Positions 1,386-30,418 are shown, counted from the first letter of the stretch. The stretch is 64,000 bases of DNA from Micromonosporaceae bacterium (GCA_035649895.1 DASRIS010000186.1:94-64093); one strand, 5' to 3'. Notes: generated by a model not told the origin, from the letters alone. Program-made: numbers and translations.

Positions 1386-2582
1386 CTACGCCACGCCGAC
1401 CCGCTCAGCCAGGCCGTGCAGCTCCGCCCCCGGCCGGGCGCTCAACGCCCTGACGGTCTCTCTGACGAACCTCGACGCCCTGACCCGCTGGGGCGCGGTG
1501 CGCTCGCCGATCAGCAGCATGCGGGCCGCCTCTTTGCTGCGCCCAAGCCGCGCCAGGGCCCGGCCCGTGTCGATGTAGAACAGCGACTGCCGCGCCGCTA
1601 CCGGGATCAGCAGCGGGTTGGTCGTCCGGGCGATGGCGACCGCCTGACCCGGGTCGCCACCGTCGGTGTCCATGCTCACGCGCCAGATCCTGACGTTCGT
1701 CGGGCCGAAGTACAGGCAGTGCGTGTCCGTCTCGCCGGTGCGCCCGGCCAGCTGCCCAGCCTCGGTCAGGTGTGTGGTCGCATCCTGCCGCAGACCGCGG
1801 GCGGCGTAGGCACCGGCCAGATGCAGCATGCCGAGCATCTCCAGCGCCCCGGCCTGGTCGGTGTGCTCGTCCATCTCGACCGCGTGCCGGTCGGCCAGGT
1901 GCAGCGCCCGCCGGTACGACCCGCACGCCACGGCGGCGCGGGACAAGGTGAAGCCGGAGAAGCCGCGCAACGTGGGGTCTTCGACGGCATCCGCTGCCTG
2001 GTGACCAAGGCGGGCCGCCATCCAGCTCTCGGCGACGTAGCCGACGCTGGACAGGCAGACGAAGGCGTCGTAGGCGACCTGGACGAGCAGGCGCAGGGCC
2101 GGCTCGCGGTCTGGGCCATGGGTGAGCGCGTGCAGCCCGCGGATAAGGTCGGGTAGCAGCCGCAGGGCGCCCGCGTAGTCGCACCGCAGGCGCACGGCCT
2201 GCTCGGTATCCGCTAGCCGCCCCAGCTCCGGCAGCGGCCGGGCTGCACAGGTGGCCGGCTCGTCAAGCTCGGCGTCGATCAGTGCCTCGCGGACCTGGCC
2301 GACGCCGGCCAGCGCCGCGGCGACCTCAGGGTCAGCGGAGCCGGCCGGTACGCCCGCCAGCTCCGCCGTCGAGCACTCCAGGGCAGCGGCGATCTCCGCC
2401 AGCACGAACCGGTTGTCGGCACTGGTGATGCCGCGCTCGATGCGGCTCCACGTCGACGGGTCCAGGCCAGCGCGGCTGGCCGCGTACCGGATGCTCCACC
2501 CGCGTAGCTGGCGGCGCTGGGCAATCCGCTCGCCGATGCTCGTGTCCGGGTTGAGGCGTCGTCGTGCCATCGGTGCTCCCAA
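1386..2582 (-). CDS. XRE-family helix-turn-helix regulator with a ~320 aa helical (TPR-like) C-terminal domain
   Basis: N-terminus IGERIAQRRQLRGWSIRYAASRAGLDPSTWSRIERG is a classic Cro/C1 HTH. The long alpha-helical C-terminus ends in FGPTNVRIWRV. Alternative start at 2570. Confidence 0.8.
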   Translation of the reverse strand: MGAPMARRRLNPDTSIGERIAQRRQLRGWSIRYAASRAGLDPSTWSRIERGITSADNRFVLAEIAAALECSTAELAGVPAGSADPEVAAALAGVGQVREALIDAELDEPATCAARPLPELGRLADTEQAVRLRCDYAGALRLLPDLIRGLHALTHGPDREPALRLLVQVAYDAFVCLSSVGYVAESWMAARLGHQAADAVEDPTLRGFSGFTLSRAAVACGSYRRALHLADRHAVEMDEHTDQAGALEMLGMLHLAGAYAARGLRQDATTHLTEAGQLAGRTGETDTHCLYFGPTNVRIWRVSMDTDGGDPGQAVAIARTTNPLLIPVAARQSLFYIDTGRALARLGRSKEAARMLLIGERTAPQRVRASRFVRETVRALSARPGAELHGLAERVGVA

Positions 2583-2714: not shown

Positions 2715-5435
2715 TCATACGGCGAGGGCTATCGCAATGATCCCTGTTCCGAGTCCGACGAACAGGGTGTCGTCAACGGCGACGCAGCTGGTTGCTTGGT
2801 GGTGAACCAGGATGGTAATGATCAGTTCGCCGGTGGCCGGGTCCCACAGCCGTACCGTCCGGTCGGCGCTGGCGGAGGCGAGCAGGGTCCGTCCGCCCAC
2901 GCTGACCGTGCACACGCCGAGGACCAAGCTGGTGTGGCCGGTGAGGGTGTGTTCCAGGGTGCCGGTGGCCGGGTCCCACAGTCGTACCGTCTGGTCGGCG
3001 CTGGCGGAGGCGAGCAGGGTCCGTCCGCCCACGCTGACCGTGCACACTCCGTTGACCCCGCTGGTGTGGCCGGTGAGGGTGTGTTCCAGGGTGCCGGTGG
3101 CCGGGTCCCACAGCCGTACCGTCCGGTCGTCGCTGGCGGAGGCGAGCAGGGTCCGTCCGCCCACGCTGACCGTGCACACCCCGCGGACCCCGCCGGTGTG
3201 GCCGGTGAGGATGGCGTACTCGGTCCGGGGCCCGACGGCGGCCCACCTGCCGCGGTAGCGGGCGGGGTGGTCGGCGGCGACGGGTGCTCCGAGGCGGTCG
3301 AGGACGGTGGTGATGCTGAACTGCTCAACCCGCTCGCGGGGCGTGGCATCGGTCGCGAGCGAGGTCAGGCGCAGCAGCCGGGCACGGGTGTGACCGGCCG
3401 CGCTGGTGGCCTCGTCGGCCATGGGTATCAGGCGGGCTAGGTCGGCGTGCAGCAGGTAGGCATCGTCGGCCAGCAGCGTGTCGATGAGTCTGGCCTGCGC
3501 GGCGTGCAGGGGCAAGGAGCGCAGCAGGTACCCGTCGGCCGCGCCCCACCCGCCGCCGCGGCCGTGAGCCATGAACGCTTCAGCGACCGCCCGCTGCTGG
3601 GCGGGTAGGTCTGCGGTGTCCAGCAGGGTGTCGTTAAGGGCCTGGTGGAACAGCCGGTAGACCGGCTCGGGGCTGCCGGGGCTGGACTCGATGAGGAAGT
3701 TCGCCGCCGCCGAGGCGAGGAACTGGCTGAGCTGGCTGGTGGAGACCGGCTCACCGAGAGCGGCCAGGGCGACCTGCCACAGTGGCACGCTCAGCCCGGG
3801 GGCCTGGGCGTGGGCCAGCGCGGTGAACGCGGCCAACGTCCACGCCGGCCCGGTGGACGCCAGCCGCTGCAGGTACGTCCGCAGCGCCTGCGGCACGTCC
3901 TCGGGGAACGCCACCCGGTCCGGGTCGACCGCCACGGTGTCGTGCAGGCCGTGGGCGCGGGAGGCCAGGCCCGCGACGAGGAAGTTGCTCTGGGCCACCG
4001 CGGCGATCCGCGCGGCAACCGGTCGGGCCACCGCCGGGTCGGCGTACGGGTTACCGGGGCGTTCATCCCCGCGCAGCTGCAGGGTGGCCAGGGCGTACGC
4101 GGCCAGGTCGTCCGGTTCGAAGTACTCCGGGGTGTCCAGGTCAACCAGGGTGATGCCGCCGCCGAACGCGTCCAGCAGGCTCCCGCCGTGGTCGAAGCGG
4201 CGGGTGGCCACCAGGACCTGCGCCCCGACCTCGGCGCACCGCTGCGCGATAGGTAGCACGACCGAGGCGATGATGGTCCGCGCGTCAGCCGGCGTGGTGG
4301 CCTCGTCAAGGGCATCAAGGACCAGGTTGCAGGCCCGCCCCGGGCGCGCCGCCAGCCACTGGTACAGGCTCTCGGCCAGGTCCTCGACCCGGTTGGGCAG
4401 CCGCAGCGCCGCGGCCCGGGCGACCTCCTCGGCAACCTCCAGCGCGGTCTTGCCCTTGACGTGCACCGCGCAGGCCACCGACCCGACCGTGGCGCACACC
4501 TGTCCGTCGGCGGGCATCCGCCGGCGGAACTGCGCGTCGGCCGTTGTGACGACCCGGCCCAGCACCGCCGACTTGCCCACCCCCGGTGACCCGGTCACCA
4601 CCAGCACCCGCCGGTCCCGCGGCGGCGCGTCCAACCAGCCCACGATGCGGGTCAGTGCCGCCCGCCGCCCCTGGAACCGGTGCCCGCGCTCACTGCGCCG
4701 GGTCACCCCCCGCGCGCGGGGGTCCCAGTGCCGGTCCGCCTCCACGTCCGCGGCCAGGGTCCATCCCCACGCCGCGTGCGCGACCTCACCGGCGTCGTCG
4801 ACACGCCACCCGGCCAGCACCGACAGCTTCGCCTCGGGCAAGGCCAGGTCGGCGTGGTGCAAGGTGACCGCGGTCGCGTCCCCTTTGTGTGCACCCCCCG
4901 CCTGGGTCTGCCCGACCAGGCCGACCACCCGCTGGTAGCGCAGCGACCACACGCCGGTGCCGCTGAACCCCCGCTCCACCACATACCGGGACTCGGTGTC
5001 CAGCCGCACGTACCCGTCGGCCAGCACCGCCCCCACCCGCCCGTGCGCGTCGTTGCCCTTCGGGAAGCTGGCCGGGAACCCAAACGCCCACCAGGGGTGA
5101 CCGAGCAGGTGCGCCGGCTGCGGGCACAGTATCGGCGCCGGCATCACCCCCACCGGCTCGGCGAGCTCCAGCACCGCCACGTCGACCTCAGCGTCCCAGG
5201 CGACGATCCTGGCCACGCGCACCCGCGGCACCGGGACCAGGTTCGCCTTGCGGAACGCCACCTCCAGCTGCCCCGGCTCGTCGCGGTACCTTGCGACCAC
5301 GTGGTCGCAGGTCAACACCTGCGTCGCGGCCACCAGCACGCCGGACCCGACCGGGCTGGCCGACGACGGCGCGTAGATCGCGACCGTCCACGGGTCTCGA
5401 TCCAACCCGACCACCGTCGGTTCAGGCATGGTCAC
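2715..5435 (-). CDS. Trypsin-like serine protease / STAND (NACHT-like) P-loop NTPase / WD40-repeat fusion protein (bacterial NLR-like)
   Basis: 906 aa. Protease triad contexts: GSGVLVAATQVLTCDHVV (His), EVDVAVLEL (Asp), ERGFSGTGVW (Ser). FQGRRAALTRIVGWL precedes Walker A VTGSPGVGKSAV; Walker B is NLVLDALDEA. A helical region follows, then 44-aa WD40 units TGHTxxVxGVCTVSVGGRTLLASASxDxTVRLWDPATG. GTG start at 5435 (alternative ATG at 5429). Confidence 0.85.
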   Translation of the reverse strand: MTMPEPTVVGLDRDPWTVAIYAPSSASPVGSGVLVAATQVLTCDHVVARYRDEPGQLEVAFRKANLVPVPRVRVARIVAWDAEVDVAVLELAEPVGVMPAPILCPQPAHLLGHPWWAFGFPASFPKGNDAHGRVGAVLADGYVRLDTESRYVVERGFSGTGVWSLRYQRVVGLVGQTQAGGAHKGDATAVTLHHADLALPEAKLSVLAGWRVDDAGEVAHAAWGWTLAADVEADRHWDPRARGVTRRSERGHRFQGRRAALTRIVGWLDAPPRDRRVLVVTGSPGVGKSAVLGRVVTTADAQFRRRMPADGQVCATVGSVACAVHVKGKTALEVAEEVARAAALRLPNRVEDLAESLYQWLAARPGRACNLVLDALDEATTPADARTIIASVVLPIAQRCAEVGAQVLVATRRFDHGGSLLDAFGGGITLVDLDTPEYFEPDDLAAYALATLQLRGDERPGNPYADPAVARPVAARIAAVAQSNFLVAGLASRAHGLHDTVAVDPDRVAFPEDVPQALRTYLQRLASTGPAWTLAAFTALAHAQAPGLSVPLWQVALAALGEPVSTSQLSQFLASAAANFLIESSPGSPEPVYRLFHQALNDTLLDTADLPAQQRAVAEAFMAHGRGGGWGAADGYLLRSLPLHAAQARLIDTLLADDAYLLHADLARLIPMADEATSAAGHTRARLLRLTSLATDATPRERVEQFSITTVLDRLGAPVAADHPARYRGRWAAVGPRTEYAILTGHTGGVRGVCTVSVGGRTLLASASDDRTVRLWDPATGTLEHTLTGHTSGVNGVCTVSVGGRTLLASASADQTVRLWDPATGTLEHTLTGHTSLVLGVCTVSVGGRTLLASASADRTVRLWDPATGELIITILVHHQATSCVAVDDTLFVGLGTGIIAIALAV
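2814..3209 (-). repeat. Three tandem 132-bp (44-codon) WD40 units, about 95 % identical at the DNA level, inside the NLR-like gene
   Basis: In register 2829/2961/3093, adjacent units differ at 7 of 132 nt (first pair) and 7 of the first 111 nt (second pair). The differences cluster in codons 5, 6, 8, 26 and 28 of the unit. Confidence 0.9.
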
Positions 5436-5444
5436 CCGCCGATG

Positions 5445-5783
5445 TTACTGGTGCGGGGTGTCACCGGAACCGCCAGCCCGATCCGGCTGCCAGGACAGCG
5501 TCACCTCGAAGTTTCCCTCCGTCGCCGCCTTCGCCACGAACCAGTTCGCCGTCCCGGTCACCTTCACCCCGAACTTGACCTCCACCCCGTCCGGGCTCAA
5601 CGCCCGCACCTGCCCCAGGACCGCCCGCGCCGCCGCCACCGCCGGTGCGACCGCCTCCTGCACCCTCCCCGCGATCTCGTCAAGCCCGGCCGGAACGAAC
5701 CCCTCCACCGGCTCGACCTCAAACCGCACCGTGGTGTCGTCATCCACCTCGTACGTCACGACCTGCACCCCGGCCACCGGCAC
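5445..5783 (-). CDS. trypco2-like (CU044_2847-family-like) small protein, partner of the protease-STAND gene
   Basis: 112 aa. VVTYEVDDDTTVRFEVEP ... VEVKFGVKVTGTANWFVAKAATEGNFEVTLSW matches the family signature as I recall it. Its stop lies 9 nt upstream of the next gene's start on the same strand. GGGAGG SD; start at GTG 5783 or GTG 5777. Confidence 0.7.
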   Translation of the reverse strand: MPVAGVQVVTYEVDDDTTVRFEVEPVEGFVPAGLDEIAGRVQEAVAPAVAAARAVLGQVRALSPDGVEVKFGVKVTGTANWFVAKAATEGNFEVTLSWQPDRAGGSGDTPHQ

Positions 5784-5950
5784 ATCCTCCCTACCGAACG
5801 TCGCTCACTCGTTAGAGGTAACGCCTGGCATCCCTCGCCGAAACGCCCTCGCCGCCACGATCCAACCATCCGCGCGCAGCACAGCAGCGCACCGCAGTCC
5901 GGAACCACCCAGACTTCGACCGGCGGCTGGGCCTGTTCGCGGCCGAGGCG

Positions 5951-6196
5951 GTGGCGCACGCCACACGGAAGGAGGAGAGCGAGGAGTTCCTGCTGCTACA
6001 CGGTGCGGTCGACGCCCACCGGCTGCGCCGGATGTCGGGCGCGCTGAAGGCGGCGGAGGCGGTGGCGCCGACCCGACCGCATGCCCGCGCACCTGAGCCA
6101 GCGACCGGTAACCTGCTGACCGGCGCGCCCATCGCGATCTTCGACCGGGTCCGGGACGCCGTGCGGGACTGGCGTGACAAGAACCCGGACGACTGA
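5951..6196 (+). CDS. Hypothetical ORF, possibly a remnant of a longer gene
   Basis: The frame is open from 5822 to 6196 with G/C-rich third positions, but the first usable start is GTG 5951. No family recognised. Confidence 0.25.
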   Translation: MAHATRKEESEEFLLLHGAVDAHRLRRMSGALKAAEAVAPTRPHARAPEPATGNLLTGAPIAIFDRVRDAVRDWRDKNPDD

Positions 6197-6378
6197 TCCG
6201 TTGGCGCAAGCCCAGGGCCGGGGAAGATGAGCGGCGGCTCTGCCAGCGGAGACAGCGCCTGCGCGACTGCGTGATGGCGTACCAGCTCAGGCTCGGTCTG
6301 GTCCATTCTGGACCGGACCGGGCCAGCGAGCAGGATGTCCGCACTGGCTACGCCCGCCACCAACCGACGGGGGACACG

Positions 6379-6871
6379 ATGGACCGGGCTCCAGAGCCAC
6401 CAGACGGCGACGAGCGGGAGGTACTGCTGGGCTGGCTGGCCTTCCAACCGCGACGCGCTCGCCGCCAAGTGCGCGGGGATGACCGCCGACCAGCTGGTGC
6501 TCGCCTCCGCACCACCGTCGGACCTGTCCCTGCTCGGCCTGGTCCGGCACATGACCGAGATGGAGCGGGTCTACCTGGTCTACGCGCTCGGCGGCGGCGA
6601 CCTCAGCCTGGTCTACTGCACCGACGACGCCCCGGACGCCGACATCGTGGGCCTGGACCCGTCGATGTCCGGCCCGTCAGTCGAATGCTGGCACCAGGAG
6701 CGGGCCAGCGCCGACGCGCTGCTCGCCGCCTGCGGGTCGCTGGACACCGCAGGCGCGGGCAACCGCCGCTCGGTCCGGTGGAATCTGGTCAAGTTGATCC
6801 AGGAGTACGCCCGCCACAACGGCCACGCCGATATCGTCCGGGAGCGCATCGACGGCGCAACCGGCGAGTGA
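6379..6871 (+). pseudogene. DinB/DUF664 (mycothiol-transferase-like) gene interrupted by a 1-nt frameshift near 6448
   Basis: Frame 1 reads MDRAPEPPDGDEREVLLGWLAFQ up to 6447. Frame 2 continues RDALAAKCAGMTADQL ... LVRHMTEMERVY ... LIQEYARHNGHADIVRE. Joined, they give a normal ~164 aa DinB-fold protein. Confidence 0.7.
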
Positions 6872-6975
6872 GCCGGGAGAGGCCCTATCTCAGAGGCGAG
6901 AGCTGAAGCAGCCTCTCCGCTGGTGAGCGAGGAGGTAGTCCCCGTACGGTGCGGTCCTCGCGTCTGCCGCGCTCG

Positions 6976-7353
6976 TCAGGCCGCCGCCGGCGGTATCGAC
7001 CGAACCGCCCGGATCACGTCATCGATGTTGACCAGGTTCGTCTTGACCCGGCCGGCGAGCAATGACTCGATGGCGCGCCGGATCAACACTGACGCCGGGA
7101 CGCCCTCGGCCTCGGCCGCCTCCTCTAGGCGCCGGTTGAGGTCTTCGGGCAGGCGCAGCGAGCGGACCACGTTGAGCGGGGTTCCCGGGTCGCCTGGCGG
7201 GGGCAGCAGCAGTGCCAGCTCGGCCTCCTGCTCCGCCGTGCCGGGAACGGGCGTCAGGGAGTGCAGGAGGTCGTTGACCTGATCGGGGGTCATATCGCGC
7301 AGGTCGGGACTGGTCAGCGCGTCGCGGAACTGGCGAAACTCGGCGTTACTCAT
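6976..7353 (-). CDS. Ribbon-helix-helix (CopG/BrnA-like) antitoxin candidate
   Basis: VVRSLRLPEDLNRRLEEAAEAEGVPASVLIRRAIESLL is an RHH motif. The ATG at 7351-7353 overlaps the upstream gene's TGA (ATGA). An alternative ATG lies at 7365. Confidence 0.65.
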   Translation of the reverse strand: MSNAEFRQFRDALTSPDLRDMTPDQVNDLLHSLTPVPGTAEQEAELALLLPPPGDPGTPLNVVRSLRLPEDLNRRLEEAAEAEGVPASVLIRRAIESLLAGRVKTNLVNIDDVIRAVRSIPPAAA

Positions 7354-7628
7354 TTGCTCTCCCACGACTCGAACTCCTTCCGCTCGTCGTCGGTCATGTC
7401 GCGGGCACCCGCGATCTCGACGTCGAAGCCCCGCGCCAGCCGCGTCATGACAACCAACAGGCGGCCGTCCTTCGTGCGCCCACAGATGTAGAGCATCGAC
7501 AGGACGTAGGGGTGGCGGACCGGGACCGGCCGCCGACGGTCGCCGTAGAGCACCTGCAGAACCTCGTACGGCTCGACGCTGTTACGGTCGAGCACGGCGA
7601 ACGCGGTCGACAACCACTCGTAGGGCAC
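7350..7628 (-). CDS. Putative toxin (BrnT/DUF497-like; tentative) of a toxin-first TA pair
   Basis: 92 aa. PYEVLQVLYG ... ICGRTKDGRLLVVMTRLARGFDVEIAGARDMTDDERKEF resembles the BrnT layout. GTG start without an SD. Translationally coupled to the RHH gene. Confidence 0.5.
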   Translation of the reverse strand: MPYEWLSTAFAVLDRNSVEPYEVLQVLYGDRRRPVPVRHPYVLSMLYICGRTKDGRLLVVMTRLARGFDVEIAGARDMTDDERKEFESWESK

Positions 7629-7634
7629 TCGATC

Positions 7635-7659
7635 AATGTACTACGAAATGAGCTACGAA
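7635..7659 (-). promoter_or_regulatory. -10-like TACATT 6 nt upstream of the toxin GTG, plus two direct CTACGAA repeats (12-nt period); candidate leaderless promoter/operator
   Basis: On the minus strand: TTCGTAGCTCATTTCGTAGTACATTgatcgaGTG. Repeats lie at 7641-7647 and 7653-7659 (plus-strand coordinates). Confidence 0.3.
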
Positions 7660-7737
7660 CCGGTATCGCCAAGATCAAAGACCTGGTACTGCTGTCTACC
7701 GTCCGGGATGTCGGCGGGTGTGGCAGCGGCGGCGGGC

Positions 7738-7846
7738 TCAGGCGAGGGCCCGGTCCACCGCGTCGGGGAAGAGGACCCGCTCCAGCACCAGGTGCACCAG
7801 CCCCACGGTCGCCGCCCGCTCACCCAGCTCGCTTGGCACGATTCGC
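7738..7846 (-). pseudogene. Orphan copy of the last 36 codons plus stop of the ROK regulator gene
   Basis: 7735-7846 aligns with 8370-8481 (about 92 % identity). It translates to RIVPSELGERAATVGLVHLVLERVLFPDAVDRALA*, against ...VLSPEAVDRALA* in the intact gene. Confidence 0.8.
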
Positions 7847-7854
7847 TTTGGAAT

Positions 7855-8288
7855 TCATTGATTCTCTTCGAGCCTAGTGTTGCTGCGGACGGTCTCGCGA
7901 TCGATCTCGGCCTGCTCGCGCGCGATGCGGCGGGCAGTGTCGTTGATGGCGGCCTCGGCGCGGTCCAGCCGCTGCTGTGAGCGGACCAGCGCGGCGCGGG
8001 CGAGCTCCAACGCCTCTGTGCTGCGGTCGACGTGCTGTTCTGCGGCTACACGCAGACGGCGGCTGCGCTCATCGAGCTCCTCCTGCCGTTTGACGAGCCA
8101 GCACTCGCGGGCGTCGGCGATCGTCTCCCGTCGTTGGCGAGCGTCTCGCGTTCGTCGGCGGCCCGGTCCCGTCTGTCGGCGGCGTGCTCTCGCTCGACGA
8201 GCCTGCGCTCGTGGCCAGCCACCAGGCGCTCGCAACCCTCCAGCGTCTGCTCCTGTTGGGCACGCGGCTTCTGCTTGCGGTCGGTCAC
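7855..8288 (-). pseudogene. Arg/Asp/Glu-rich coiled-coil protein gene, apparently frameshifted near 8127
   Basis: GGAG SD plus GTG 8288 gives MTDRKQKPRAQQEQ...ADERETLANDG. The coiled coil continues in another frame as ETIADARECWLVKRQEELDERSRRL...RLEENQ*, with the stop at 7855. Confidence 0.55.
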
Positions 8289-8372
8289 GGCTGCACTCCG
8301 TGCTACGCATGGCTGCTTGCGTCTGTATCACCCAGGCTACCAACGAGATGAGCCACGAGCCCGCGGTCCGGC

Positions 8373-9545
8373 TCAGGCGAGGGCCCGGTCCACCGCTTCG
8401 GGTGAGAGCACCCGCTCCAGCACCAGGTGCACCAGGCCCACGGTCGCCGCGCGCTCGCCCAGCTCGCTCGGCACGATCCGCAGCCCCTCGGTGCTGCGGC
8501 CCAGCGTGACGTGGCGTACCCGGGATGCGACGGTCTCCACGACGGAGGGCAGGGCGCCGATGGTGCCGCCGAGCACGAGCGTGCGCGGGTTGGTCAGCGC
8601 GATCAGCGCGGCCAGCACGCTGCCGACCCGGCGCGCGGCCGCCCGCAGCGCGGCCCGCACCGCCGGGTCCCGGCGCAGGGCCCGCTCGGCCAGGTCGTCC
8701 AGGCAGGTCACGCCGGCGGGGCGGAGCCGGGCCAGCAGGGCATGACCTGAGGCGTACGCGGCGAGGCAGCCCAGCCGCCCGCAGCGGCACTCCGGCCCGC
8801 CCCGGCTGACCGTGACGTGCCCGATGTCCCCGGCGGCGCCGTCGTCGCCACCGAGGCTGCGGCCGTCGACCACGAGCCCGGCCCCGATGCCGCTGGCCCA
8901 CTTGACGCCGAGCAGCGTGGCGCCAGCATGCCGGGTCGCCTCGCCGAGCACCAGCGCCCGCGCGTCGTTCTCCAGCACCAGCGGCACCGGCCACTGCTCC
9001 CGCAGCCGCTCCAGCAGCGGGTAGCTCTCCCAGCCCGGCATCGTCGTGGTCGGCCCGGTCAGCCCGGTCGCCGGGGAGACCGGCCCGGGCAGGCCGACCC
9101 CGACCCCGATGAGCCGCTCCCCGCGACCCCGGGAGAGCAGGGTACGGGCCAGCGTCACCAGCGCCCGTACGGTCCGGTCGGGCGGCGTGCTCGGGACGTC
9201 CAGGCGTACCCCGGCGCAGCGCAGCTCGGCACCTGGCACGCCGGTCACGGCGACCCGGCCATGGGTGTGCCCGACGTCGATGGTGAGCACCACCATGTGC
9301 CGGTCGTCGAAGCGGATCAGCTCGGCCGGGCGCCCGCCGAGCGAGGCGCCCACCCCGGCCGCGTAGACCAGCCCGTGCCGGAACAGCGGCCCCAGCCGGT
9401 CCAGCAGGGTGGGGCGGGACATCCCGGTGGCCTCGATCAGCTGCTGGCGGGTCCAGGCCGGGCGCGAGCGGATCAGCGCCAGCAGGTGTCCCGAGGTCGC
9501 GCCCTGCAACGGCCGCGGCGGGCCGGGTTTCGGCGTGTCGGTCAC
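8373..9545 (-). CDS. ROK-family transcriptional regulator (N-terminal wHTH plus sugar-kinase-like domain)
   Basis: HLLALIRSRPAWTRQQLIEATGMSRPTL, then VLTIDVGHTHGRVAV, GVGLPGPV and CRCGRLGCLAAYASG (ROK zinc motif). Confidence 0.85.
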   Translation of the reverse strand: MTDTPKPGPPRPLQGATSGHLLALIRSRPAWTRQQLIEATGMSRPTLLDRLGPLFRHGLVYAAGVGASLGGRPAELIRFDDRHMVVLTIDVGHTHGRVAVTGVPGAELRCAGVRLDVPSTPPDRTVRALVTLARTLLSRGRGERLIGVGVGLPGPVSPATGLTGPTTTMPGWESYPLLERLREQWPVPLVLENDARALVLGEATRHAGATLLGVKWASGIGAGLVVDGRSLGGDDGAAGDIGHVTVSRGGPECRCGRLGCLAAYASGHALLARLRPAGVTCLDDLAERALRRDPAVRAALRAAARRVGSVLAALIALTNPRTLVLGGTIGALPSVVETVASRVRHVTLGRSTEGLRIVPSELGERAATVGLVHLVLERVLSPEAVDRALA

Positions 9546-9577
9546 TGTGCCCCATTGACAGCTCGAGCGGCGGGCTG

Positions 9578-9610
9578 AGAACTTGTGTCAGCTAGTTTGA
9601 CAAAAGTTCT
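9578..9610. promoter_or_regulatory. 13-nt inverted repeat (12/13 match) in the ROK / ABC-operon divergent intergenic region; candidate operator
   Basis: AGAACTTGTGTCA (9578-9590), 7-nt spacer, TGACAAAAGTTCT (9598-9610). It lies 26 nt upstream of the ATG at 9636. Confidence 0.4.
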
Positions 9611-9635
9611 GCCATGACACATCCAGGGAGCCTCG

Positions 9636-10976
9636 ATGACGAACAGTTCCTGGTACGGCCCGAGAGTCAGCCGGCGCGCCGCGTTGGGCCTCGGCCTCGG
9701 TGTGGCGGCAGCGCCGGCCTTGGCCGCCTGTGGTGGCGTGTCCACCTCGGGCGCGGACGGCGGCAGCGGATCCGTCAGCTTCCTATGCACCCAGTTCGCC
9801 CCGGTCGAGGAGCGGCAGCGCTTCGAGCAGATCCTGAGCAACCGGGTGACCACCGCCAAGGTCGCCTACAACACGGCCGACGGCGGGGTGTTCGCATCCA
9901 CCATCCAGTCCCAGGTCGAGGCGGGCAAGGTGCAGGTCGGCCTGGTCGGCGGCCTGCACGGCGAGCTCGCCCCGCACGCCAGCCGCCTCACCGACCTCGA
10001 CGACCTGGTCACCGCGCTGGCCGACCGGGGCATCGAGGCCGACCTGACCGACCTCAGCAAGCTCGGCGGCAACGCCGCCAAGTACATACCGTGGATGCAG
10101 GCCTCCTACGTCGTCGCGGTCAACAAGAAGGCGCTGCAGTGGCTGCCCAGCGGCGCCGACCCGCAGAAGCTCACCTACGACCAGCTGCTGGCGTGGGCGG
10201 CGGCGGCCAAGGCCGGCAACGGCGGCAAGGCCGTCCTCGGCATCCCGGCCGGGCCGAAGGGGCTCTACCACCGGTTCTTCCAGGGCTTCCTGCTGCCCAG
10301 CTTCACCGGCGGGCAGATCACCACGTTCCGCAGCCCGGAGGCCGTGCAGGCCTGGCAGTACATGAAGGAGCTGTGGGCCAACACGACCCCGGCCTCCACC
10401 AACTACGACTTCATGCAGGAGCCGCTGCAGCGCGGCGAGGTGCTCATCGCCTGGGACCACGTGGCCCGCCTGGTCAACGCGCCGAAGGAGAAGCCGGACG
10501 ACTGGCTGATGGTGCCCGCGCCACGGGGCCCGAAGGGACTGGGCTACCTGCTCGTCGTGGTGGGCCTCGGCATCCCCCGCGGCGCCCCCGACGTGGACAA
10601 GGTCAAGGAGGTCATCAAGGCCCTCACCAACCCGGACACCCAGCTGGACGTGCTGCGCCAGAACGCGTTCTTCCCGACCGTCAAGGCCACGCTCCCCAGC
10701 GACCTGCCGCCGAACATCTCCCTGGAGGCCGCGGCCGTGCAGGCCCAGCAGGGCGCCAGCGAGGCGGTCCTGTCGCTGCCGCCGGTGGGCCTGGGCGCCA
10801 AGGACGGGGAGGTCTCGCAGATCTTCAAGAACACGTTCAAGGAGATCTGCCTCGACCGCAAGCCGGTGCCGCAGGTGCTCGACGCGCAGGCCAAGCAGCT
10901 CAACACGATCCTGGACCAGCTGAAGGTCCCGTGCTGGAAGCCGGACCCCGCCGGTCAGACCTGCAAGGTGATGTGA
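9636..10976 (+). CDS. ABC transporter sugar-binding lipoprotein (family-1 solute-binding protein)
   Basis: Tat-like/lipoprotein signal RRAALGLGLGVAAAPALAACGG. GGGAG SD. Size and composition fit a carbohydrate SBP. Confidence 0.85.
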   Translation: MTNSSWYGPRVSRRAALGLGLGVAAAPALAACGGVSTSGADGGSGSVSFLCTQFAPVEERQRFEQILSNRVTTAKVAYNTADGGVFASTIQSQVEAGKVQVGLVGGLHGELAPHASRLTDLDDLVTALADRGIEADLTDLSKLGGNAAKYIPWMQASYVVAVNKKALQWLPSGADPQKLTYDQLLAWAAAAKAGNGGKAVLGIPAGPKGLYHRFFQGFLLPSFTGGQITTFRSPEAVQAWQYMKELWANTTPASTNYDFMQEPLQRGEVLIAWDHVARLVNAPKEKPDDWLMVPAPRGPKGLGYLLVVVGLGIPRGAPDVDKVKEVIKALTNPDTQLDVLRQNAFFPTVKATLPSDLPPNISLEAAAVQAQQGASEAVLSLPPVGLGAKDGEVSQIFKNTFKEICLDRKPVPQVLDAQAKQLNTILDQLKVPCWKPDPAGQTCKVM

Positions 10977-20231: not shown

Positions 20232-20418
20232 CGAAGTCCTCCTTGTCTGGGCCGGCCGGACAGCCCCGGCCGGCGACCCCATCGTCTCCGGTGCACGCCA
20301 GCCCCGGCGTCGGCCCGCGGTCGGATCCGGCCGCCCATTCTGGGCTGGGGGAGCGCCCCTACCCGCAGTCAGGGTTGCCCCTGACCGGCAGCACCCGGCG
20401 GCGGATGCCGGCTCGCCC

Positions 20419-21090
20419 TCAGGCACCGGGCCGCACCAGCCCGGTCTCGTACGCCAGGACGACCGCCTGTACCCGGTCGCGCAGCCCCAGCTTGGTCAGC
20501 ACGTGCCCGACGTGCGTCTTGATGGTGGTCTCGCTCACCGACAGCGCACGGGCGATCTCCGCGTTGGACAGCCCACGCGCCACCTGGGTGAGCACCTCCC
20601 GCTCCCGCTCGGTGAGCACGTCCAGGATGCGCGGGGCGGTGGCGTTCGGGTCGGGCAGGGCCCCGGCGAACTGGTCGAGCAGGCGTCTGAGGATGCGCGG
20701 GGCCACCACCGCCTCGCCCGCGGCCACGGTGCGGATCGCGGTGACCAGGTCATCGGCTGGGACGTCCTTGGCCAGGAACCCGCTCGCCCCGGCCCGCAGC
20801 GCGCCGACCACGTACTCGTCGAGGTCGAAGGTGGTGAGGATCAGCACCCGGACCGGCAGCCGGGCGTCCACGATCGCGCGGGTGGCCGCGACCCCGTCCA
20901 TGCGCGGCATCCGGATGTCCATCAGCACCACGTCCGGCAGCAGGCGCCGGGCGAGGTCCACCGCCTCGGCCCCGTCCCCGGCCTCGCCGACCACGTCGAG
21001 GTCGTCCTCGGCGCCGAGGACCATCCGGAACCCGGTCCGCAGCAGCGGCTGGTCGTCGGCGAGCAGGATGCGTACGGGTCGATGGGTCAC
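20419..21090 (-). CDS. NarL/LuxR-family response regulator
   Basis: RILLADDQPLLRTG ... VVLMDIRMPRMDG receiver, then LTEREREVLTQVARGLSNAEIA HTH. GTG start at 21090. Confidence 0.9.
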   Translation of the reverse strand: MTHRPVRILLADDQPLLRTGFRMVLGAEDDLDVVGEAGDGAEAVDLARRLLPDVVLMDIRMPRMDGVAATRAIVDARLPVRVLILTTFDLDEYVVGALRAGASGFLAKDVPADDLVTAIRTVAAGEAVVAPRILRRLLDQFAGALPDPNATAPRILDVLTEREREVLTQVARGLSNAEIARALSVSETTIKTHVGHVLTKLGLRDRVQAVVLAYETGLVRPGA

Positions 21091-21094
21091 CGGC

Positions 21095-22249
21095 TCACCC
21101 GCCCGCCGCCGCGCCGTCGAGCTGGTCGGCGGGGATCGTCGCGACCACCCGGAACCCGCCGCCGGGGCGGGGGCCGGTGCGCAGCGTGCCGCCGTAGAGG
21201 GCGACCCGTTCCCGCATGCCGAGCAGCCCGTGGCCGACCTGCTCCCCATCCGGCGGGGGCCCGTGCCCGGTGTCGCACACCTCCAGCGTCAGGCGGCCGT
21301 CGGCGACGCCGAGCCGTACCTCGGCGGCTGCCGCGCCGGCGTGCTTGAGGGTGTTGGTCAGCGCCTCCTGCACGATGCGGTAGACGGTCAGCGCCACGCC
21401 CGGGTCCAGCGGCCGGGGGTCACCCTCGATCCGCAGCGTCACCGGCAGCCCGGCCTCGCGGACCTGCTCGACCAGCGCGGCGATGGTGCCGAGCCCGGGC
21501 TGCGGAGCCAGCTCAGCCGCTGGCTCCGCCTCGGTGCGCAGCACGGAAAGCAGGCGGCGCAGCTCGCGCAGGGTGGTGCGGCCGGTCTCCTCGATCGTGG
21601 TGAGCGCCTCGTCCGCCGCGTCCGGGTCGCGGCGCAGCACCCGGCGCGCCCCGGTGGCCAGGACGCCCATCACGCTGACGTGGTGGGCGACGACGTCGTG
21701 CAGCTCCCGGGCGATGCGCCGGCGCTCCTGGGCGACTGCCTGCTCGGCGCGCGAGCGCAGGTGCTCCTCTGCCGTCCGCGCCCGTACCCGCAGCGCCGCC
21801 GCGTACGCCCGCTGGTTGCGCACGGTCCGGCCGACCAGGAAGCAGACCACCGCGAGCAGCGCGTTGAAGGTCACCAGGTAGCCCGCGGCGACGCCCGGCC
21901 AGGCACCGGCTGCGCCGGCGGCCAGCGGCGGCGCCAACATCAGCAGCGTGGCCAGCACCGCCCGGCGTGCCGGCAGCCGGGCGGCGGCGGTGTAGGTCAG
22001 CATGCCCGCGGCGCTCCAGACCAGGGCCGCCGGCAAGGACTGCGGCCACAGCTCGCGGAGGCCGGCCAGCCACAGCAGCATCCCGACCGCGTAGAGGACG
22101 AGCGCCAGCAGGGCGTCGGCGAGCAGCGGCCGGCGCCGCAGCGCCTCGGCCAGCCAGGGCCTGCCGCCTGCCGCCCGTCCGCTGCCGCCTGCCGCCCGCT
22201 GGCCGCCGGCCGCCACGGACCCGCCGCTTGCCCGCGGCTCGCCGGTCAT
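21095..22249 (-). CDS. Sensor histidine kinase (HisKA_3/DesK-NarX type), membrane-embedded N-terminus
   Basis: Several N-terminal TM segments without a large extracytoplasmic loop. H-box RRIARELHDVVAHHVS. HATPase motifs LTNTLKHAGA and DTGHG. The start is uncertain (22249 or 22336). Confidence 0.85.
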   Translation of the reverse strand: MTGEPRASGGSVAAGGQRAAGGSGRAAGGRPWLAEALRRRPLLADALLALVLYAVGMLLWLAGLRELWPQSLPAALVWSAAGMLTYTAAARLPARRAVLATLLMLAPPLAAGAAGAWPGVAAGYLVTFNALLAVVCFLVGRTVRNQRAYAAALRVRARTAEEHLRSRAEQAVAQERRRIARELHDVVAHHVSVMGVLATGARRVLRRDPDAADEALTTIEETGRTTLRELRRLLSVLRTEAEPAAELAPQPGLGTIAALVEQVREAGLPVTLRIEGDPRPLDPGVALTVYRIVQEALTNTLKHAGAAAAEVRLGVADGRLTLEVCDTGHGPPPDGEQVGHGLLGMRERVALYGGTLRTGPRPGGGFRVVATIPADQLDGAAAGG

Positions 22250-22359
22250 GCAGCGACGGTAGCCCGGACCTGGCCACCGATCCTCACCCCAGGCGGCAAC
22301 CAGGCTCCACCCGGCGGTGGATGCCCTACTCATCAACAGTGCTCATCACGGCGCGCCCA

Positions 22360-23334
22360 TCAACGGCGCGGAGCCCTGACGGCCGCGGCAGGCTCAGCCA
22401 GGGCGGGCTCAGCCAGGTCCTCGGGCGCGACCGGGTCACCGGACCCGGCTGAGCGCTCGGGGAACGGCGGCGGGGTGCCGCCGAACGCGGGACAGTGCGC
22501 CTGGTGGGCGCACCAGCCGCACAGCCGGCTCGGCCGGGGACGGAAGTCGCGGGTCTGCCCCGACCGCTCGATGGCCCGCCACAACGCGAGCAGCGTGCGC
22601 TCGAACCGGAGCAGCTCATCGGCGCTTGGGACGTAGTCGCACACCTCCGCGTCCTTGAGGTAGAGCAGGCGCAGCACCCGTGGCACCACCCCGCGCACCC
22701 GCCACAGCACCAGGGCGTAGAACTTCAGCTGGAACAGGGCCTGCGCCTCGAACGCCTCGCGCGGCGCGCCGCCGGACTTGTAGTCCACGACCCGGAGCTC
22801 ACCGGTCGGGGACACGTCGAGCCGGTCCACATAGCCCCGGATGACCAGCTGGCCGTCGACAGTGGTCTCGACCAGGTGCTCGCGCTGCGCCGGCTCGATG
22901 CGCCGCGGGTCCTCCACCGCGAAGTAGCCGTCCAGCAGCTCCCGGGCGGAGGTGAGCAGCTCAACCTGCTCCTCGGCCGCGAACACGGTGGCCAGCTCGG
23001 GCTCGGCCTCGGCGAGCCGGGCCCACTGCGGCTCCACCAGGTCGGCCGCGACCGGCGGGGTCCGCTGCGGGGCCGGTAGGTCGAACAGCCGCTCCAGCAC
23101 CGCGTGCACCAGCGTGCCGCGCACCTGGTCCGCCGAGGGCTGCTCGGGCAGCTTGTCGATGGTGCGGAAACGGTAGAGCAGGGGGCAGGTCTTGAAGTCT
23201 GCCGCGCGGGATGGGGAGAGCGTGGGGAGCGCGGGCGCCGGCCCGGCCTGCGTCCGCCTTGTCTCCCGGGGCAGGGCCTCCTGGGGCACGGCCTTGTGGG
23301 AAAGCTCCGTCTCCTGGGACAGCTCCACCGTCAT
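22360..23334 (-). CDS. RecB-family PD-(D/E)XK nuclease with a C-terminal Cys cluster (Rv2119-like position)
   Basis: LSPSRAADFKTCPLLYRFR, GTLVHAVLE, VDRLD...VVDYKSG and C-terminal CGWCAHQAHCPAFGG. Confidence 0.75.
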   Translation of the reverse strand: MTVELSQETELSHKAVPQEALPRETRRTQAGPAPALPTLSPSRAADFKTCPLLYRFRTIDKLPEQPSADQVRGTLVHAVLERLFDLPAPQRTPPVAADLVEPQWARLAEAEPELATVFAAEEQVELLTSARELLDGYFAVEDPRRIEPAQREHLVETTVDGQLVIRGYVDRLDVSPTGELRVVDYKSGGAPREAFEAQALFQLKFYALVLWRVRGVVPRVLRLLYLKDAEVCDYVPSADELLRFERTLLALWRAIERSGQTRDFRPRPSRLCGWCAHQAHCPAFGGTPPPFPERSAGSGDPVAPEDLAEPALAEPAAAVRAPRR

Positions 23335-26945: not shown

Positions 26946-28712
26946 GTGGCACGTAGCGAGGACGCGGATGCTCGCGCCGCGCGGTGGGAGCGAGAGGCCC
27001 ACGATCTCTCCACACAGGTCGCGTTCCTGCAAGAGGAGCTGGCTCTGGTGCGGCGCAAGCTGACAGAGAGCCCGCGCCACGTGCGGCAGCTCGAGGAACG
27101 GCTGGCCGCCACCCAGACGCAGCTCGCTCGCCTGACGGAGAACAACGAGCGGCTCGTGGCCACGCTCAAGGAGGCGCGTGCCCAGATCGTCACCCTCAAG
27201 GAGGAGATTGACCGGCTGGCACAGCCGCCCAGCGGCTACGGCGTGTTCCTGGAACGCCACGAGGACGGCACTGTCGACGTCTTCACCGGGGGGCGCAAGC
27301 TTCGGGTCGCCGTGTCGCCAGCGGTCGACGTCGAGGCGCTACGGCGGGGCCAGGAGGTCCTGCTCAACGACGCGCTGAACATCGTGGACGCGGTCGGCTT
27401 CGAGCGGGCCGGGGACGTCGTGATGCTCAAGGAGATCCTCGACGGGGGCGACCGCGCCCTGGTCATCTCGCACGCCGACGAGGAGCGCATCGTCCACCTC
27501 GCCGACACCCTCATCGACACGCCGCTGCGGGCCGGGGACTCGCTGCTGATCGAGGCGCGCTCGGCGTACGCGTACGAGCGGGTGCCCAAGAGCGAGGTCG
27601 AGGAGCTGGTGCTGGAGGAGGTGCCCGACGTCGGCTACCGCGACATCGGCGGCCTGGACCGGCAGATCGAGCAGATCCGCGACGCGGTCGAGCTGCCGTT
27701 CCTGCACGCCGACCTGTTCCGGGAGCACAGGCTGCGCCCGCCCAAGGGCGTGCTGCTGTACGGCCCGCCCGGCTGCGGCAAGACGCTGATCGCCAAGGCC
27801 GTCGCCAACTCGCTGGCCAAGCAGATGGCGGCCCGCCGGGGTGAGGAGAAGCACACCAGCTACTTCCTCAACATCAAGGGCCCGGAGCTGCTCAACAAGT
27901 ACGTCGGCGAGACCGAGCGGCATATCCGGCTGATCTTCCAGCGGGCACGGGAGAAGGCCGGCGAGGGTACGCCGGTCATCGTGTTCTTCGACGAGATGGA
28001 CTCGGTTTTCCGCACCCGCGGCTCCGGGGTCTCCTCGGACGTGGAGAACACCATCGTCCCGCAGCTGCTGAGCGAGATCGACGGGGTCGAGGGCCTGGAG
28101 AACGTCATCGTGATCGGGGCGTCCAACCGGGAGGACATGATCGACCCGGCGATCCTGCGCCCCGGCCGGCTGGACGTGAAGATCAAGATCGAGCGGCCCG
28201 ACGCCGAGGCGGCCAAGGACATCTTCTCCAAGTACATCCTCGCCGACCTGCCACTGCACGCCGACGACCTGGCCGAGCACGGCGGCTCGGCGGAGGCGTG
28301 CGTGGCCGCCATGATCCAGGCGGCGGTCCTGCGGATGTACTCGGAGACCGAGGAGAACCGGTTCCTGGAGGTCACCTACGCCAACGGGGACAAGGAGGTC
28401 CTGTACTTCAAGGACTTCAACTCCGGCGCCATGATCCAGAACATCGTGGACCGCGCCAAGAAGATGGCGATCAAGGAGTTCCTCGCCACCCAGCGTAAGG
28501 GTCTGCGCCTACAGCACCTGCTGGAGGCGTGCCTCGACGAGTTCCGGGAGAACGAGGACCTGCCCAACACCACCAACCCCGACGACTGGGCCCGCATCTC
28601 CGGCAAGAAGGGCGAGCGCATCGTCTACATCCGTACGCTCGTCTCCGGCGGCAAGGGCACCGAGTCGGGCCGCTCCATCGACACGGTCACCAACACCGGC
28701 CAGTACCTATGA
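26946..28712 (+). CDS. arc: Proteasome-associated AAA ATPase Mpa/ARC
   Basis: N-terminal coiled coil, [19 protein letters not shown] Walker [11 protein letters not shown] Walker B, C-terminal ...TNTGQYL docking motif. GGAGG SD plus GTG. Confidence 0.95.
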
Positions 28713-28722
28713 CCCCGGGCAC

Positions 28723-28754
28723 GGCAGCGGCGTGGCGCGGGCCGCGCCGCTGCC
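28723..28754 (+). terminator. 14-bp GC-rich hairpin 10 nt after the arc stop (terminator/attenuator candidate, no U-tract)
   Basis: GGCAGCGGCGTGGC-gcgg-GCCGCGCCGCTGCC (one G-U pair). Confidence 0.4.
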
Positions 28755-28835
28755 TCACCTATCTGGCCCCTGCGCCGCAACAGAGCGCCAGCGGATGCAG
28801 GCCGTTCGTACCCGAGACCGTCTAGGCTCGACGAC

Positions 28836-30353
28836 ATGAGCGTGCGGCGGGTAATGGGCACCGAGGTCGAGTACGGCATCTCCGTCCCGGGGCAGCCCGG
28901 TGCCAACCCGATGGTGACATCGTCCCAGGTGGTCAACGCGTACGGTGCCCGCCCGGAGCTGACCCGGGGCGGGCGGGCGCGCTGGGACTACGAGGAGGAG
29001 TCGCCGCTGCGTGACGCGCGCGGCTTCACCTACTCCGGCGCGGCGTACGACCCGGCCGAGGCCCTGGCCGACGAGGACCTGGGCCTGGCCAACGTGATCC
29101 TCACCAACGGCGCCCGGCTGTACGTCGACCACGCCCACCCGGAGTACTCGACCCCCGAGGTCACCAACCCCCGGGACCTGGTGCTGTGGGACAAGGCTGG
29201 CGAGCACGTGATGGCCGAGGCGTCGCGGCGGGCCGCGACCATCCCCGGCAGCCACCAGATCCACCTCTACAAGCACAATACCGACAACAAGGGCGTAAGC
29301 TACGGCGCCCACGAGAACTACCTGATGCGGCGGCAGACCCCGTTCACCGACATCGTCACGCACCTGACGCCGTTCTTCGTCACCCGGCAGATCGTCTGCG
29401 GCGCCGGGCGGGTGGGCATCGGCCAGGACGGCTCCACCCCTGGCTACCAGATCTCGCAGCGCGCCGACTTCTTCGAGGTCGAGGTGGGCCTGGAGACCAC
29501 GCTCAAGCGCCCGATCATCAACACCCGCGACGAGCCGCACGCCGACGCCGACAAGTACCGCCGCCTGCACGTCATCATCGGCGACGCCAACCTGTCGGAG
29601 ATCTCCACCTACCTCAAGGCCGGCACCACCTCGCTCATCCTCACGATGATCGAGGAGAAGGCGCTCACCCCCGACCTCAGCATCGCCGACCCGGTCGCCG
29701 AGCTCAAGGCGGTCAGCCACGACCACAGCCTGCGGCACCTGATGCGGCTGCGGGACGGGCGCCGGCTCACCGCCCTCGACCTGCAGTGGGCGTACTTCGA
29801 GCGGGCCAGGTCCTTTGTGGACGACCGGTACGGCGCCGACCTGGACGAGGTCACCGCCGACGTGCTGGAGCGCTGGGAGAGCGTGCTGGACCGGCTCAGC
29901 CGTGACCCCATGCTCTGCGCCGGCGAGCTGGACTGGGTGGCGAAGCTGCGGCTGCTAGAGGGCTACCGCGAGCGGGAGCAGCTGGAGTGGGCCTCCCCGA
30001 AGCTCGCCCTGGTCGACCTCCAGTACGCCGACGTGCGCCAGGAGAAGGGCCTCTACCACCGGCTGGTCGCCCGGGGCGCGATGCGCACGCTCTTCGACGA
30101 GGCGCGGGCCCGTGCCGCGATGGTCACCCCGCCGGAGGACACCCGCGCCTACTTCCGCGGACGCTGCCTGGCCCAGTACGGCTCCGAGGTGGTCGCGGCC
30201 AGCTGGGACTCGGTGATCTTCGATGTCGGCCGGGAGTCGCTGGTCCGGGTGCCGATGATGGAGCCCGAACGGGGGACCAAGGCGCACGTGGGCGCGCTGT
30301 TCGACCGGTGCCCCAGCGCAAAGGACCTGCTGGAGGCGATCACGTCGGGCTGA
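28836..30353 (+). CDS. dop: Pup deamidase/depupylase Dop
   Basis: [38 protein letters not shown] and [22 protein letters not shown], paralogous to PafA downstream. Confidence 0.9.
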
Positions 30354-30418
30354 CCCGCGGGTCCGTCGTACCGTCGGAGTAGGGTTTCGGGGCAACGCAA
30401 GTAGGAGGAGGGCGAGGG

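Follow-up and report, generated by a model that had tools for sequence, protein, structure and literature searches.

A Trypco1 gene paired with a trypsin-STAND-WD40 gene in Micromonosporaceae: a candidate protease-gated cell-death module with an Apaf-1-like architecture

Introduction

The closest described relative of the locus presented here is the SsPepco-SsAvs4 pair of Streptomyces subrutilus, in which a small protein, SsPepco, is encoded upstream of a trypsin-STAND protein, SsAvs4 (STAND being short for signal transduction ATPases that have numerous domains). SsPepco is preassembled as a β-barrel of 9-10 subunits that resists sodium dodecyl sulphate, and cleavage of its C-terminus activates the toxin (Evans et al. 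2025, 10.1101/2025.11.14.688446). The protease of SsAvs4 cuts a 2-kDa C-terminal tail off SsPepco after the conserved residue Ile97, SsPepco truncated exactly at this residue is lethal, and the toxicity of the pair requires the catalytic Ser, Pepco and the amphipathic N-terminal helix (10.1101/2025.11.14.688446). Two families of small proteins, Trypco1 and Trypco2, had previously been described in conflict systems, where they neighbour trypsin-like peptidases in a mutually exclusive manner (Kaur et al. 2020, PMC7159879). Evans et al. merged both under the name “Pepco”, of which one member has been characterised, SsPepco, labelled Trypco2 in their supplement (10.1101/2025.11.14.688446). Here, we describe a Trypco1 gene paired with a gene for a trypsin-protease/STAND NTPase/WD40 fusion in a stretch of 64,000 nucleotides (nt) from a Micromonosporaceae bacterium (GCA_035649895.1, DASRIS010000186.1:94-64093; hereafter the window). 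An earlier reading made from the DNA alone (the sequence-only reading) had proposed that these two genes form a conflict module.

Other systems share parts of this organisation. In protease-bearing Avs1, Avs2 and Avs4 systems, the STAND sensor carries a trypsin-like protease at its N-terminus and licenses a latent toxin encoded by a gene of its own; there the partner is an MBL nuclease, whereas here it is Trypco1, and the sensor domain differs. In bacterial gasdermin systems, a sensor-linked protease frees a pore-forming protein of a short inhibitory peptide at the C-terminus, but that protein has about 250 amino acids (aa) and an unrelated fold and oligomerises after cleavage, whereas Trypco1 is about 110 aa long. 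Fungal NACHT-WD40 receptors of the NOD-like receptor (NLR) type (HET-E/HET-D/NWD) combine a NACHT-like NTPase with WD40 repeats of near-identical DNA, variable repeat number and few variable surface positions; they carry HET or other N-terminal effector domains, and have no protease and no small partner gene. Finally, a 2026 survey of STAND proteins noted, and did not assay, bacterial Apaf-1 orthologs with β-propeller sensors and N-terminal caspase-like proteases (10.64898/2026.01.04.697583). Like the protein described here, these bacterial variants have an N-terminal protease replacing the CARD; the ones highlighted are caspase-like, and the one found here is trypsin-fold.

The kind of system is thus not new: both parts are named in Pfam/NCBIfam, their association was described in 2020, the biochemistry of a sister module was worked out in 2025, and the same architecture is present in hundreds of homologs. 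Below, we report the domain identities, conservation and predicted folds of the two proteins, the pairing of their genes and the variation of the WD40 array. The best explanation of these data is that the pair constitutes a two-gene, protease-gated cell-death module, of the abortive-infection type, of filamentous Actinomycetota.

Results

A serine protease fused to an Apaf-1-like STAND NTPase

Both open reading frames (ORFs) lie on the minus strand of the window, as does every feature of the pair given below. The small one (5445..5783, 112 aa) is upstream of the large one (2715..5435, 906 aa), both have GTG starts, and 9 nt separate them; the lengths, order and spacing are those of the sequence-only reading. 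The local DNA has a GC content of 72%. In public gene calls, each gene begins two codons further downstream, the large one at ATG 5429 (904 aa) and the small one at GTG 5777 (110 aa). The latter is preceded, 8 nt upstream, by a GGGAGG Shine-Dalgarno sequence and is probably the real start of the small gene, giving 110 aa. Residue numbering throughout is that of the 906-aa and 112-aa ORFs. The motifs quoted in the earlier reading are all present in the 906-aa ORF and in the order claimed.

The large protein begins with an S1 (chymotrypsin-fold) serine protease domain (residues ~17-200; 4836..5387). This domain matches the whole of the Pfam Trypsin_2 profile (residues 30-173, profile positions 1-144/144, 3e-14, 54.4 bits against a cutoff of 27.6). 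The segments LTCDHVV (residues 41-47), DVAVLEL (85-91) and GFSGTGVW (156-163) contain the predicted catalytic triad, His45 (5301-5303), Asp85 (5181-5183) and Ser158 (4962-4964), and all three residues are invariant in an alignment of 46 homologs of the large protein sharing 47-64% identity. The trypsin-like protease proposed from these triad contexts is therefore well founded. In the AlphaFold2 model, a β-rich domain at residues 17-191 superposes on Staphylococcus epidermidis Esp with a TM-score of 0.70 and a root-mean-square deviation of 3.2 Å (Foldseek against the PDB). Matches to defence models in PADLOC and NCBIfam (Avs1b, LmuA and RT-protease) are confined to this domain. Avs1b is the best match in the PADLOC library (2.6e-12, protease domain only); the NCBIfam Avs1b model yields 39.7 bits against a cutoff of 1500, over residues 25-146 only. 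Overall, the similarity to Avs1b is limited to about 120 residues at 40-43 bits versus that family cutoff of 1500, and no Avs1-Avs4 (AVAST) family model matches the protein over its full length.

The protease is followed by a STAND P-loop NTPase domain (residues ~253-440; 4116..4679), modelled as alternating β-strands and α-helices. It contains the pre-P-loop motif FQGRRAALTRIVGWL (residues 254-268), the Walker A motif GSPGVGKS (282-289; 4569-4592) and the Walker B motif LVLDALDEA (371-379; 4299-4325). Residues G282, G285, G287, K288 and S289 of Walker A and D374, D377 and E378 of Walker B are invariant in the 46 homologs. With the full-length protein as query, Pfam AAA_16 matches residues 253-380 (5.6e-8, 33.9 bits, cutoff 32.6). 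When the NTPase region was scanned as a sub-sequence, AAA_16 reached 35.2 bits, AAA_22 came out just over its cutoff, and NPHP3_N scored 26.3 bits, compared with 24.2 for the full-length protein and a cutoff of 24.8. NACHT (15.6 bits, cutoff 26.7) and nSTAND1 (22.2, cutoff 27.1) are both below threshold, and NB-ARC is absent from the Pfam matches of the NTPase region at E≤1. We take the DALDE motif in Walker B to be NACHT-like, as the weak NPHP3_N and NACHT matches also look, and one homolog of the large protein is named “NACHT and WD repeat domain-containing protein” by NCBI. With its Walker A and B motifs, helical arm and C-terminal repeats, the large protein is a STAND NTPase.

The AlphaFold2 model of the large protein (predicted local distance difference test (pLDDT) 85, predicted template modelling score 0.75) places the NTPase at residues ~253-440, an all-helical stretch at 441-712 and WD40 strands at 727-904. 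Its top fold match in the PDB is full-length murine Apaf-1 (Foldseek, E = 2e-21, ~740 aligned columns), followed by the human apoptosome and Drosophila Dark; TM-scores reach only 0.31-0.35, owing to the way in which the domains are arranged. Apaf-1 and the large protein share the module order of NTPase, helical arm and WD40 sensor, and the helical arm (residues ~441-725; 3261..4115) sits where Apaf-1 has its WHD/HD2 region. Together, the matches to Apaf-1, the apoptosome, Dark and Esp therefore indicate an Apaf-1-like STAND protein with a serine protease in the position of the CARD. There are differences: in Apaf-1 the CARD recruits a caspase, whereas here a trypsin-fold serine protease is fused directly, Pfam NB-ARC is unmatched, and this copy has four blades. 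In profile and single-sequence searches of PDB sequences, neither Apaf-1, CED-4 nor any R-protein was retrieved, and nothing meaningful came from searching the same sequences with either the protease or the NTPase module or with the NTPase profile; a lone match to PspA was discarded as a low-complexity helical artefact. The resemblance of the model to the NB-ARC/AP-ATPase clade is thus structural only and not in sequence. With AAA_16 over its cutoff, invariant Walker motifs and an Apaf-1-like model, the STAND/NLR-like architecture proposed by the sequence-only reading holds.

Between protease and NTPase lies a linker with the pre-P-loop segment (residues 219-257; 4665..4781), which ranks among the most conserved stretches of the large protein, though it is poorly modelled (pLDDT 41-71 for residues 210-250). 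Its invariant residues are W223, G224, W225, D230, H236, W237, P239, R242, G243, F254, G256 and R257. This segment could be autoinhibitory or self-processing.

A WD40 array with recurrent hypervariable positions

The C-terminal region (residues 726-906; 2715..3260) matches the Pfam WD40 hidden Markov model (3.5e-25, 87.8 bits). It is made of three canonical 44-aa blades (3075-3206, 2943-3074 and 2811-2942) and one degenerate composite closing blade, and the DNA forms a tandem repeat at 2829-3210 with a period of 132 nt, 2.9 copies and 94% identity. The units of the window differ from one another at positions 5, 6, 8, 26 and 28, mostly by non-synonymous changes. In orthologs whose repeats are homogenised, such as those of loci L011, L008, L043 and L057, variation is likewise highest at these five positions; the scaffold is uniform there, and the variable positions are those flanking the GH dipeptide and the B-C-turn Asp. 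We take these five positions to be the canonical top-face contact positions of propellers. This pattern of variation resembles that of the fungal NACHT-WD40 NLRs (HET-E/NWD) of heterokaryon incompatibility.

In isolate genomes, complete orthologs typically measure 1335-1415 aa and have about 14 blades, a number implied by an ortholog length of ~1350 aa; this would correspond to two propellers, as in Apaf-1. The highest number of units counted directly is 13, in L011, where each unit is exactly 44 aa long and the DNA identity is 91%. With 906 aa, the protein of the window is much shorter, and we asked whether this copy is faithful. It may be unfaithful or non-functional, the ~14 blades having either been collapsed to four by short-read assembly or really been lost by contraction, and we give this only slightly less than an even chance. 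Collapse is possible because the 132-nt repeats are 94% identical and lie on a short-read contig; the second public record of the locus is a MEGAHIT k141 contig. Of 69 homologs, 10 are truncated by a contig end, in eight cases inside the first one to three blades, and the complete but short ORFs of 865-1156 aa, with a repeat identity of 73-83%, come mainly from short-read metagenome-assembled genomes (MAGs). Also, pLDDT falls below 50 in the last blade. On the other side, the reading frame is intact and retains the conserved C-terminal closing blade of the family, an identical 904-aa protein is found in both public records of the locus (possibly derived from the same source data), and shorter forms of 1013-1286 aa also exist in some isolate genomes. 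Whichever of the two applies, the doubt touches this copy only and is compatible with the interpretation favoured for the family. The functionality of this copy is uncertain because, with only four blades, it may be a contracted allele or a collapsed assembly. Accordingly, the WD40 blades on which the sequence-only reading based its “WD40 ligand binding” are present, but such binding may fail here, with four blades against ~14.

More generally, short-read assemblies seem to be broken or shortened where the DNA of WD40 repeats is nearly identical, as seen in the window (2811-3206) and at L001, L002, L017, L026, L034, L042 and L067. Many contigs stop after one to three blades, and complete short forms stem mainly from MAGs; for these sensors, blade counts taken from metagenomes are unreliable.

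The small protein is Trypco1

The small protein matches Pfam Trypco1 (PF19493; 3.8e-20, 72.7 bits, cutoff 24.6) over profile positions 2-97 of 98, and the NCBIfam model CU044_2847_fam (NF041216; 8.7e-19, 68 bits, cutoff 23). Trypco2 (PF19631) was considered and rejected, as nothing but Trypco1 matched even at E≤10. Thus, of the double label “trypco2 / CU044_2847” given to the small protein, the second half stands and the first is replaced by Pfam Trypco1; CU044_2847 equals Trypco1, not Trypco2. The C-terminal signature that prompted the label spans residues 69-98. AlphaFold2 predicts a β-hairpin (residues 7-23), a helix (34-60), a second β-hairpin (66-97) and a tail, at a pLDDT of 60. In the window, a disordered tail of 14 aa follows Trp98. 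This Trp is invariant in 36 close homologs and conserved in at least 90% of 61 divergent ones, and the Trypco1 core ends in Trp at all 80 of the loci described below. Tails are 5-24 residues long (median 10) and consist of 19% Pro and 21% charged residues; the P2’ residue is Pro in 51 of 63 parsed tails, and this Pro is lost in distant members. The β-strands are strongly amphipathic, with a hydrophobic moment of about 0.95, as in SsPepco. No gasdermin match was obtained for Trypco1 in Pfam or PADLOC.

The two genes are strictly paired

Scanning one genome per species with a Trypco1 profile gave 80 loci, all in Actinomycetota and mostly in filamentous genera, except for one 1-kb contig. A homolog of the large protein adjoins Trypco1 in 73 of them, as the next gene downstream in the same orientation at 68 and in divergent orientation at five, and this bears out the conserved pairing expected by the sequence-only reading. 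At one further locus (L036:6727-9555), a distinct Trypsin_2 + NB-ARC protein is the neighbour, bringing to 74 the loci in which a trypsin-STAND gene adjoins Trypco1. Five loci (L016, L046, L023, L025 and L075) have no adjoining protease, and the 1-kb contig is uninformative.

The gap of 9-15 nt between the genes suggests co-translation. In the divergent pairs (L003, L009, L012, L022 and L028, around 5300-10310; Micromonospora, Pseudosporangium and Actinoplanes), the genes are ~75-250 nt apart according to our ORF calls; co-translation is therefore not obligatory. Among the loci with other neighbours, Trypco1 is found beside a 1617-aa Tubulin_2 protein (L016:5119-9972) or a TPR-GGDEF protein (L046:6204-9920). 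Together with the Trypsin_2 + NB-ARC neighbour, these suggest that Trypco1 is swapped between sensor types. The 1-kb contig (L029, CAZXRU010000070.1, 1015 nt) carries a typical actinobacterial Trypco1 gene in a MAG of “uncultured Fluviicola sp.” (Bacteroidota), probably reflecting binning contamination and not horizontal transfer.

Is Trypco1 a protease-licensed toxin?

The locus resembles SsPepco-SsAvs4 in that a small protein of ~110-117 aa is encoded directly upstream, and on the same strand, of a trypsin-STAND protein, and both are actinobacterial. Both small proteins combine amphipathic β-strands and a single helix with a disordered C-terminal tail that is rich in Pro and in charged residues. 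The sensors differ, SsAvs4 having a portal-sensing helical-repeat domain and the protein described here a WD40 array on an Apaf-1-like scaffold. We propose that Trypco1 would be a protease-licensed membrane toxin cut at or just after Trp98, because its size, amphipathic strands, disordered tail and gene position resemble those of Trypco2. The mutual exclusivity of Trypco1 and Trypco2 beside trypsin-like peptidases also fits equivalent roles. By analogy, the Trypco2/Pepco + trypsin-Avs4 pair lends support to the earlier suggestion that the small protein may be a substrate or effector of the protease.

In the mechanism that we envisage, a foreign, probably phage, protein would bind the WD40 propeller on its hypervariable top face. 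Binding would lift autoinhibition and drive NTP-dependent oligomerisation of the large protein, which in turn would cluster and activate the protease domains. The activated protease would then cut the co-translated Trypco1 near its C-terminus, putatively just after Trp98, and the cut Trypco1 would become a membrane-damaging toxin by which the infected cell is killed or arrested. We judge this chain, from ligand sensing by the propeller through oligomerisation and protease activation to processing of Trypco1 into a toxin, to be a little on the probable side of even. Its last steps, cleavage of Trypco1, toxicity of Trypco1 and a role in defence, are predicted by analogy with the Trypco2/Pepco-SsAvs4 pair.

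Several observations weigh against it. Firstly, homology between Trypco1 and Trypco2 went undetected: hhalign gave a probability of 0.4% with shallow profiles, 1.5% against Trypco2 with a deeper Trypco1 profile (effective number of sequences (Neff) 4.6), and at most 0.35% in relaxed local alignments and with circular-permutation duplicates. None of the 61 divergent Trypco1 members matches Pfam Trypco2, all of them matching Trypco1 only; SsPepco itself scores 5e-18 on Pfam Trypco2. Since Trypco1 is without detectable homology to the characterised Trypco2, the label “Pepco” for both families is an assumption. Secondly, the hallmarks of SsPepco are missing. In place of its conserved Ile cleavage site, Trypco1 has the near-invariant Trp that closes the core, and Ile makes up 0.5% of tail residues. 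Trypco1 is also without the N-terminal amphipathic helix, since in SsPepco a helix at the N-terminus precedes the strands, whereas the predicted N-terminus of Trypco1 is a β-hairpin and its helix (34-60) is internal. Some Trypco1 tails are very short, at 3-6 residues. The monomer model of Trypco1 is of low confidence, and its fold search found no PDB match below E = 1. Thirdly, on the side of the large protein, the four blades of this copy are too few for a normal closed propeller (~7 being usual), and PADLOC picks up the protease domain alone and no complete system. Finally, no experiments on Trypco1 or on proteins of trypsin-STAND-WD40 architecture turned up in our literature search. Given the work of Evans et al. 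2025, the statement in the sequence-only reading that no member had been characterised is out of date for the class and holds only for the narrower combination of Trypco1 with WD40.

Several of these points could also be read as signs that Trypco1 is an adaptor, chaperone or inhibitor of the protease, for instance an inhibitor that activation sets free, the activated protease cleaving host or phage proteins directly and Trypco1 not being the death effector. The lack of homology to the pore-forming Trypco2, the lack of a conserved Ile site and the very short tails of some members all fit such a role. So do effector-independent defence proteases, whose substrates may be of host or phage origin (Evans et al. 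2025, 10.1101/2025.11.14.688446), and the listing of such small partners among adaptor/effector-associated elements (Kaur et al. 2020, PMC7159879). However, the strict one-to-one pairing and the exclusivity with Trypco2 argue for an equivalent role of the two families, and the amphipathic strands and near-invariant Trp boundary fit a processed, membrane-active peptide and not an inhibitor. Also, the five Trypco1 genes that adjoin no protease would be odd for a dedicated inhibitor. On balance, we regard the adaptor or inhibitor role as unlikely.

Genomic context

The window provides no defence-island context for the pair, nor was any tRNA or integration hallmark found in its whole length. The neighbouring genes are a metH fragment, a mycothiol S-transferase, a ribbon-helix-helix protein that has a small ORF upstream of it, a ROK regulator and a sugar ABC transporter. 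A Pup-proteasome cluster lies ~20 kb off, and a HelY-like helicase is also encoded further along the window. The cluster (26946-34057, plus strand) comprises a proteasomal AAA ATPase (Mpa/ARC type), two genes of the Pup-ligase family (Dop/PafA) and, lying between these genes, two ORFs of ~330 aa; its presence places the window in the conserved core chromosome. The flanks of 16 isolate loci (118 likely genes) contain mainly transporters, hydrolases and regulators according to Pfam, and show no clear defence signal, a weak result as it is without a baseline. Scattered PADLOC matches in these flanks are one type IIG restriction-modification/DrmMI-like protein and a few matches to mad3, mad8 and AriA, which may reflect generic domains. 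Thus, the enrichment near defence genes expected by the sequence-only reading is seen neither in the window nor among the 118 flanking genes, and this too counts against the defence role that we propose.

This context raises the question of whether the main role of the pair might lie outside phage defence, in developmental or stress-induced cell death or in kin/non-self recognition in multicellular filamentous actinomycetes, by analogy with the fungal NACHT-WD40 NLRs of heterokaryon incompatibility. The core-chromosome setting, the mostly housekeeping genes flanking the 16 isolate loci, and the restriction of the loci to Actinomycetota, mostly of filamentous genera, are what such a role would lead one to expect, and so are homogenised WD40 repeats with hypervariable surface positions. 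Systems of this type have also been tied to multicellularity (Kaur et al. 2020, PMC7159879). Nonetheless, the only tested analogues, Pepco-Avs4 and MBL-Avs2/4, answer phage portal and terminase proteins, many such clades are classed as defence-associated in the 2026 STAND survey (10.64898/2026.01.04.697583), and host-parasite arms races would also yield hypervariable sensor surfaces. We therefore hold a main role outside phage defence to be improbable, the least probable of the alternatives weighed here, bearing in mind that phage defence and non-phage roles are not mutually exclusive.

Further features of the window and of homologs deserve mention. At 1386-2582 (minus strand), 132 nt downstream of the large gene, lies the gene for an HTH_31 (XRE-type) protein of 398 aa whose C-terminal domain is long and helical. 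It was considered as a third component and rejected, since L011 and L026 are the only loci with a homolog of it close to the pair. HTH and/or BTAD Pfam matches occur in P0151 and P0171, two homologs of the large protein from the databases, possibly through fusions or merged gene calls. Upstream of the pair, two overlapping small ORFs, one of 92 aa without Pfam match (7350-7628, minus strand) and then one encoding the 129-aa ribbon-helix-helix protein (6976-7365, minus strand), are arranged in a manner that resembles a toxin-antitoxin pair. Elsewhere, ORFs of 797 aa (20243-22636, plus strand) and 444 aa (55762-57096, minus strand) have a gene-like GC content at third codon positions and no Pfam match at 1e-5.

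Discussion

The architecture and the pairing put forward by the sequence-only reading are upheld here, while its Trypco2 label, its claim that none of these systems had been characterised and its expected enrichment near defence genes are not. A protease-gated cell-death module in which the propeller of an Apaf-1-like STAND protein senses a ligand and its protease processes Trypco1 remains the explanation that we favour.

For those searching metagenomes for sensors of this type, the systematic breakage and shortening of the repeat arrays in short-read assemblies calls for caution. For Apaf-1-like sensors, the recurrent hypervariable WD40 positions point to a predicted place of ligand binding. 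As for the small partner, an exhaustive search shows Trypco1 to be a large family (1,625 clusters at 50% identity), without detectable sequence homology to the characterised Trypco2. A more far-reaching and rather doubtful possibility is that Trypco1 may be a second, independently evolved protease-licensed toxin, and not a divergent Trypco2, with a hairpin-helix-hairpin fold of its own and activation by cleavage at the near-invariant C-terminal Trp. In actinomycetes it would be wired to a true bacterial “apoptosome”, an Apaf-1-like sensor with a double propeller in which the shuffling of repeats diversifies the top-face residues. If this were true, the pair would be a direct prokaryotic counterpart of the pathway leading from a sensor oligomer to a protease and on to a pore, equipped with an NLR-style repertoire of hypervariable receptors.

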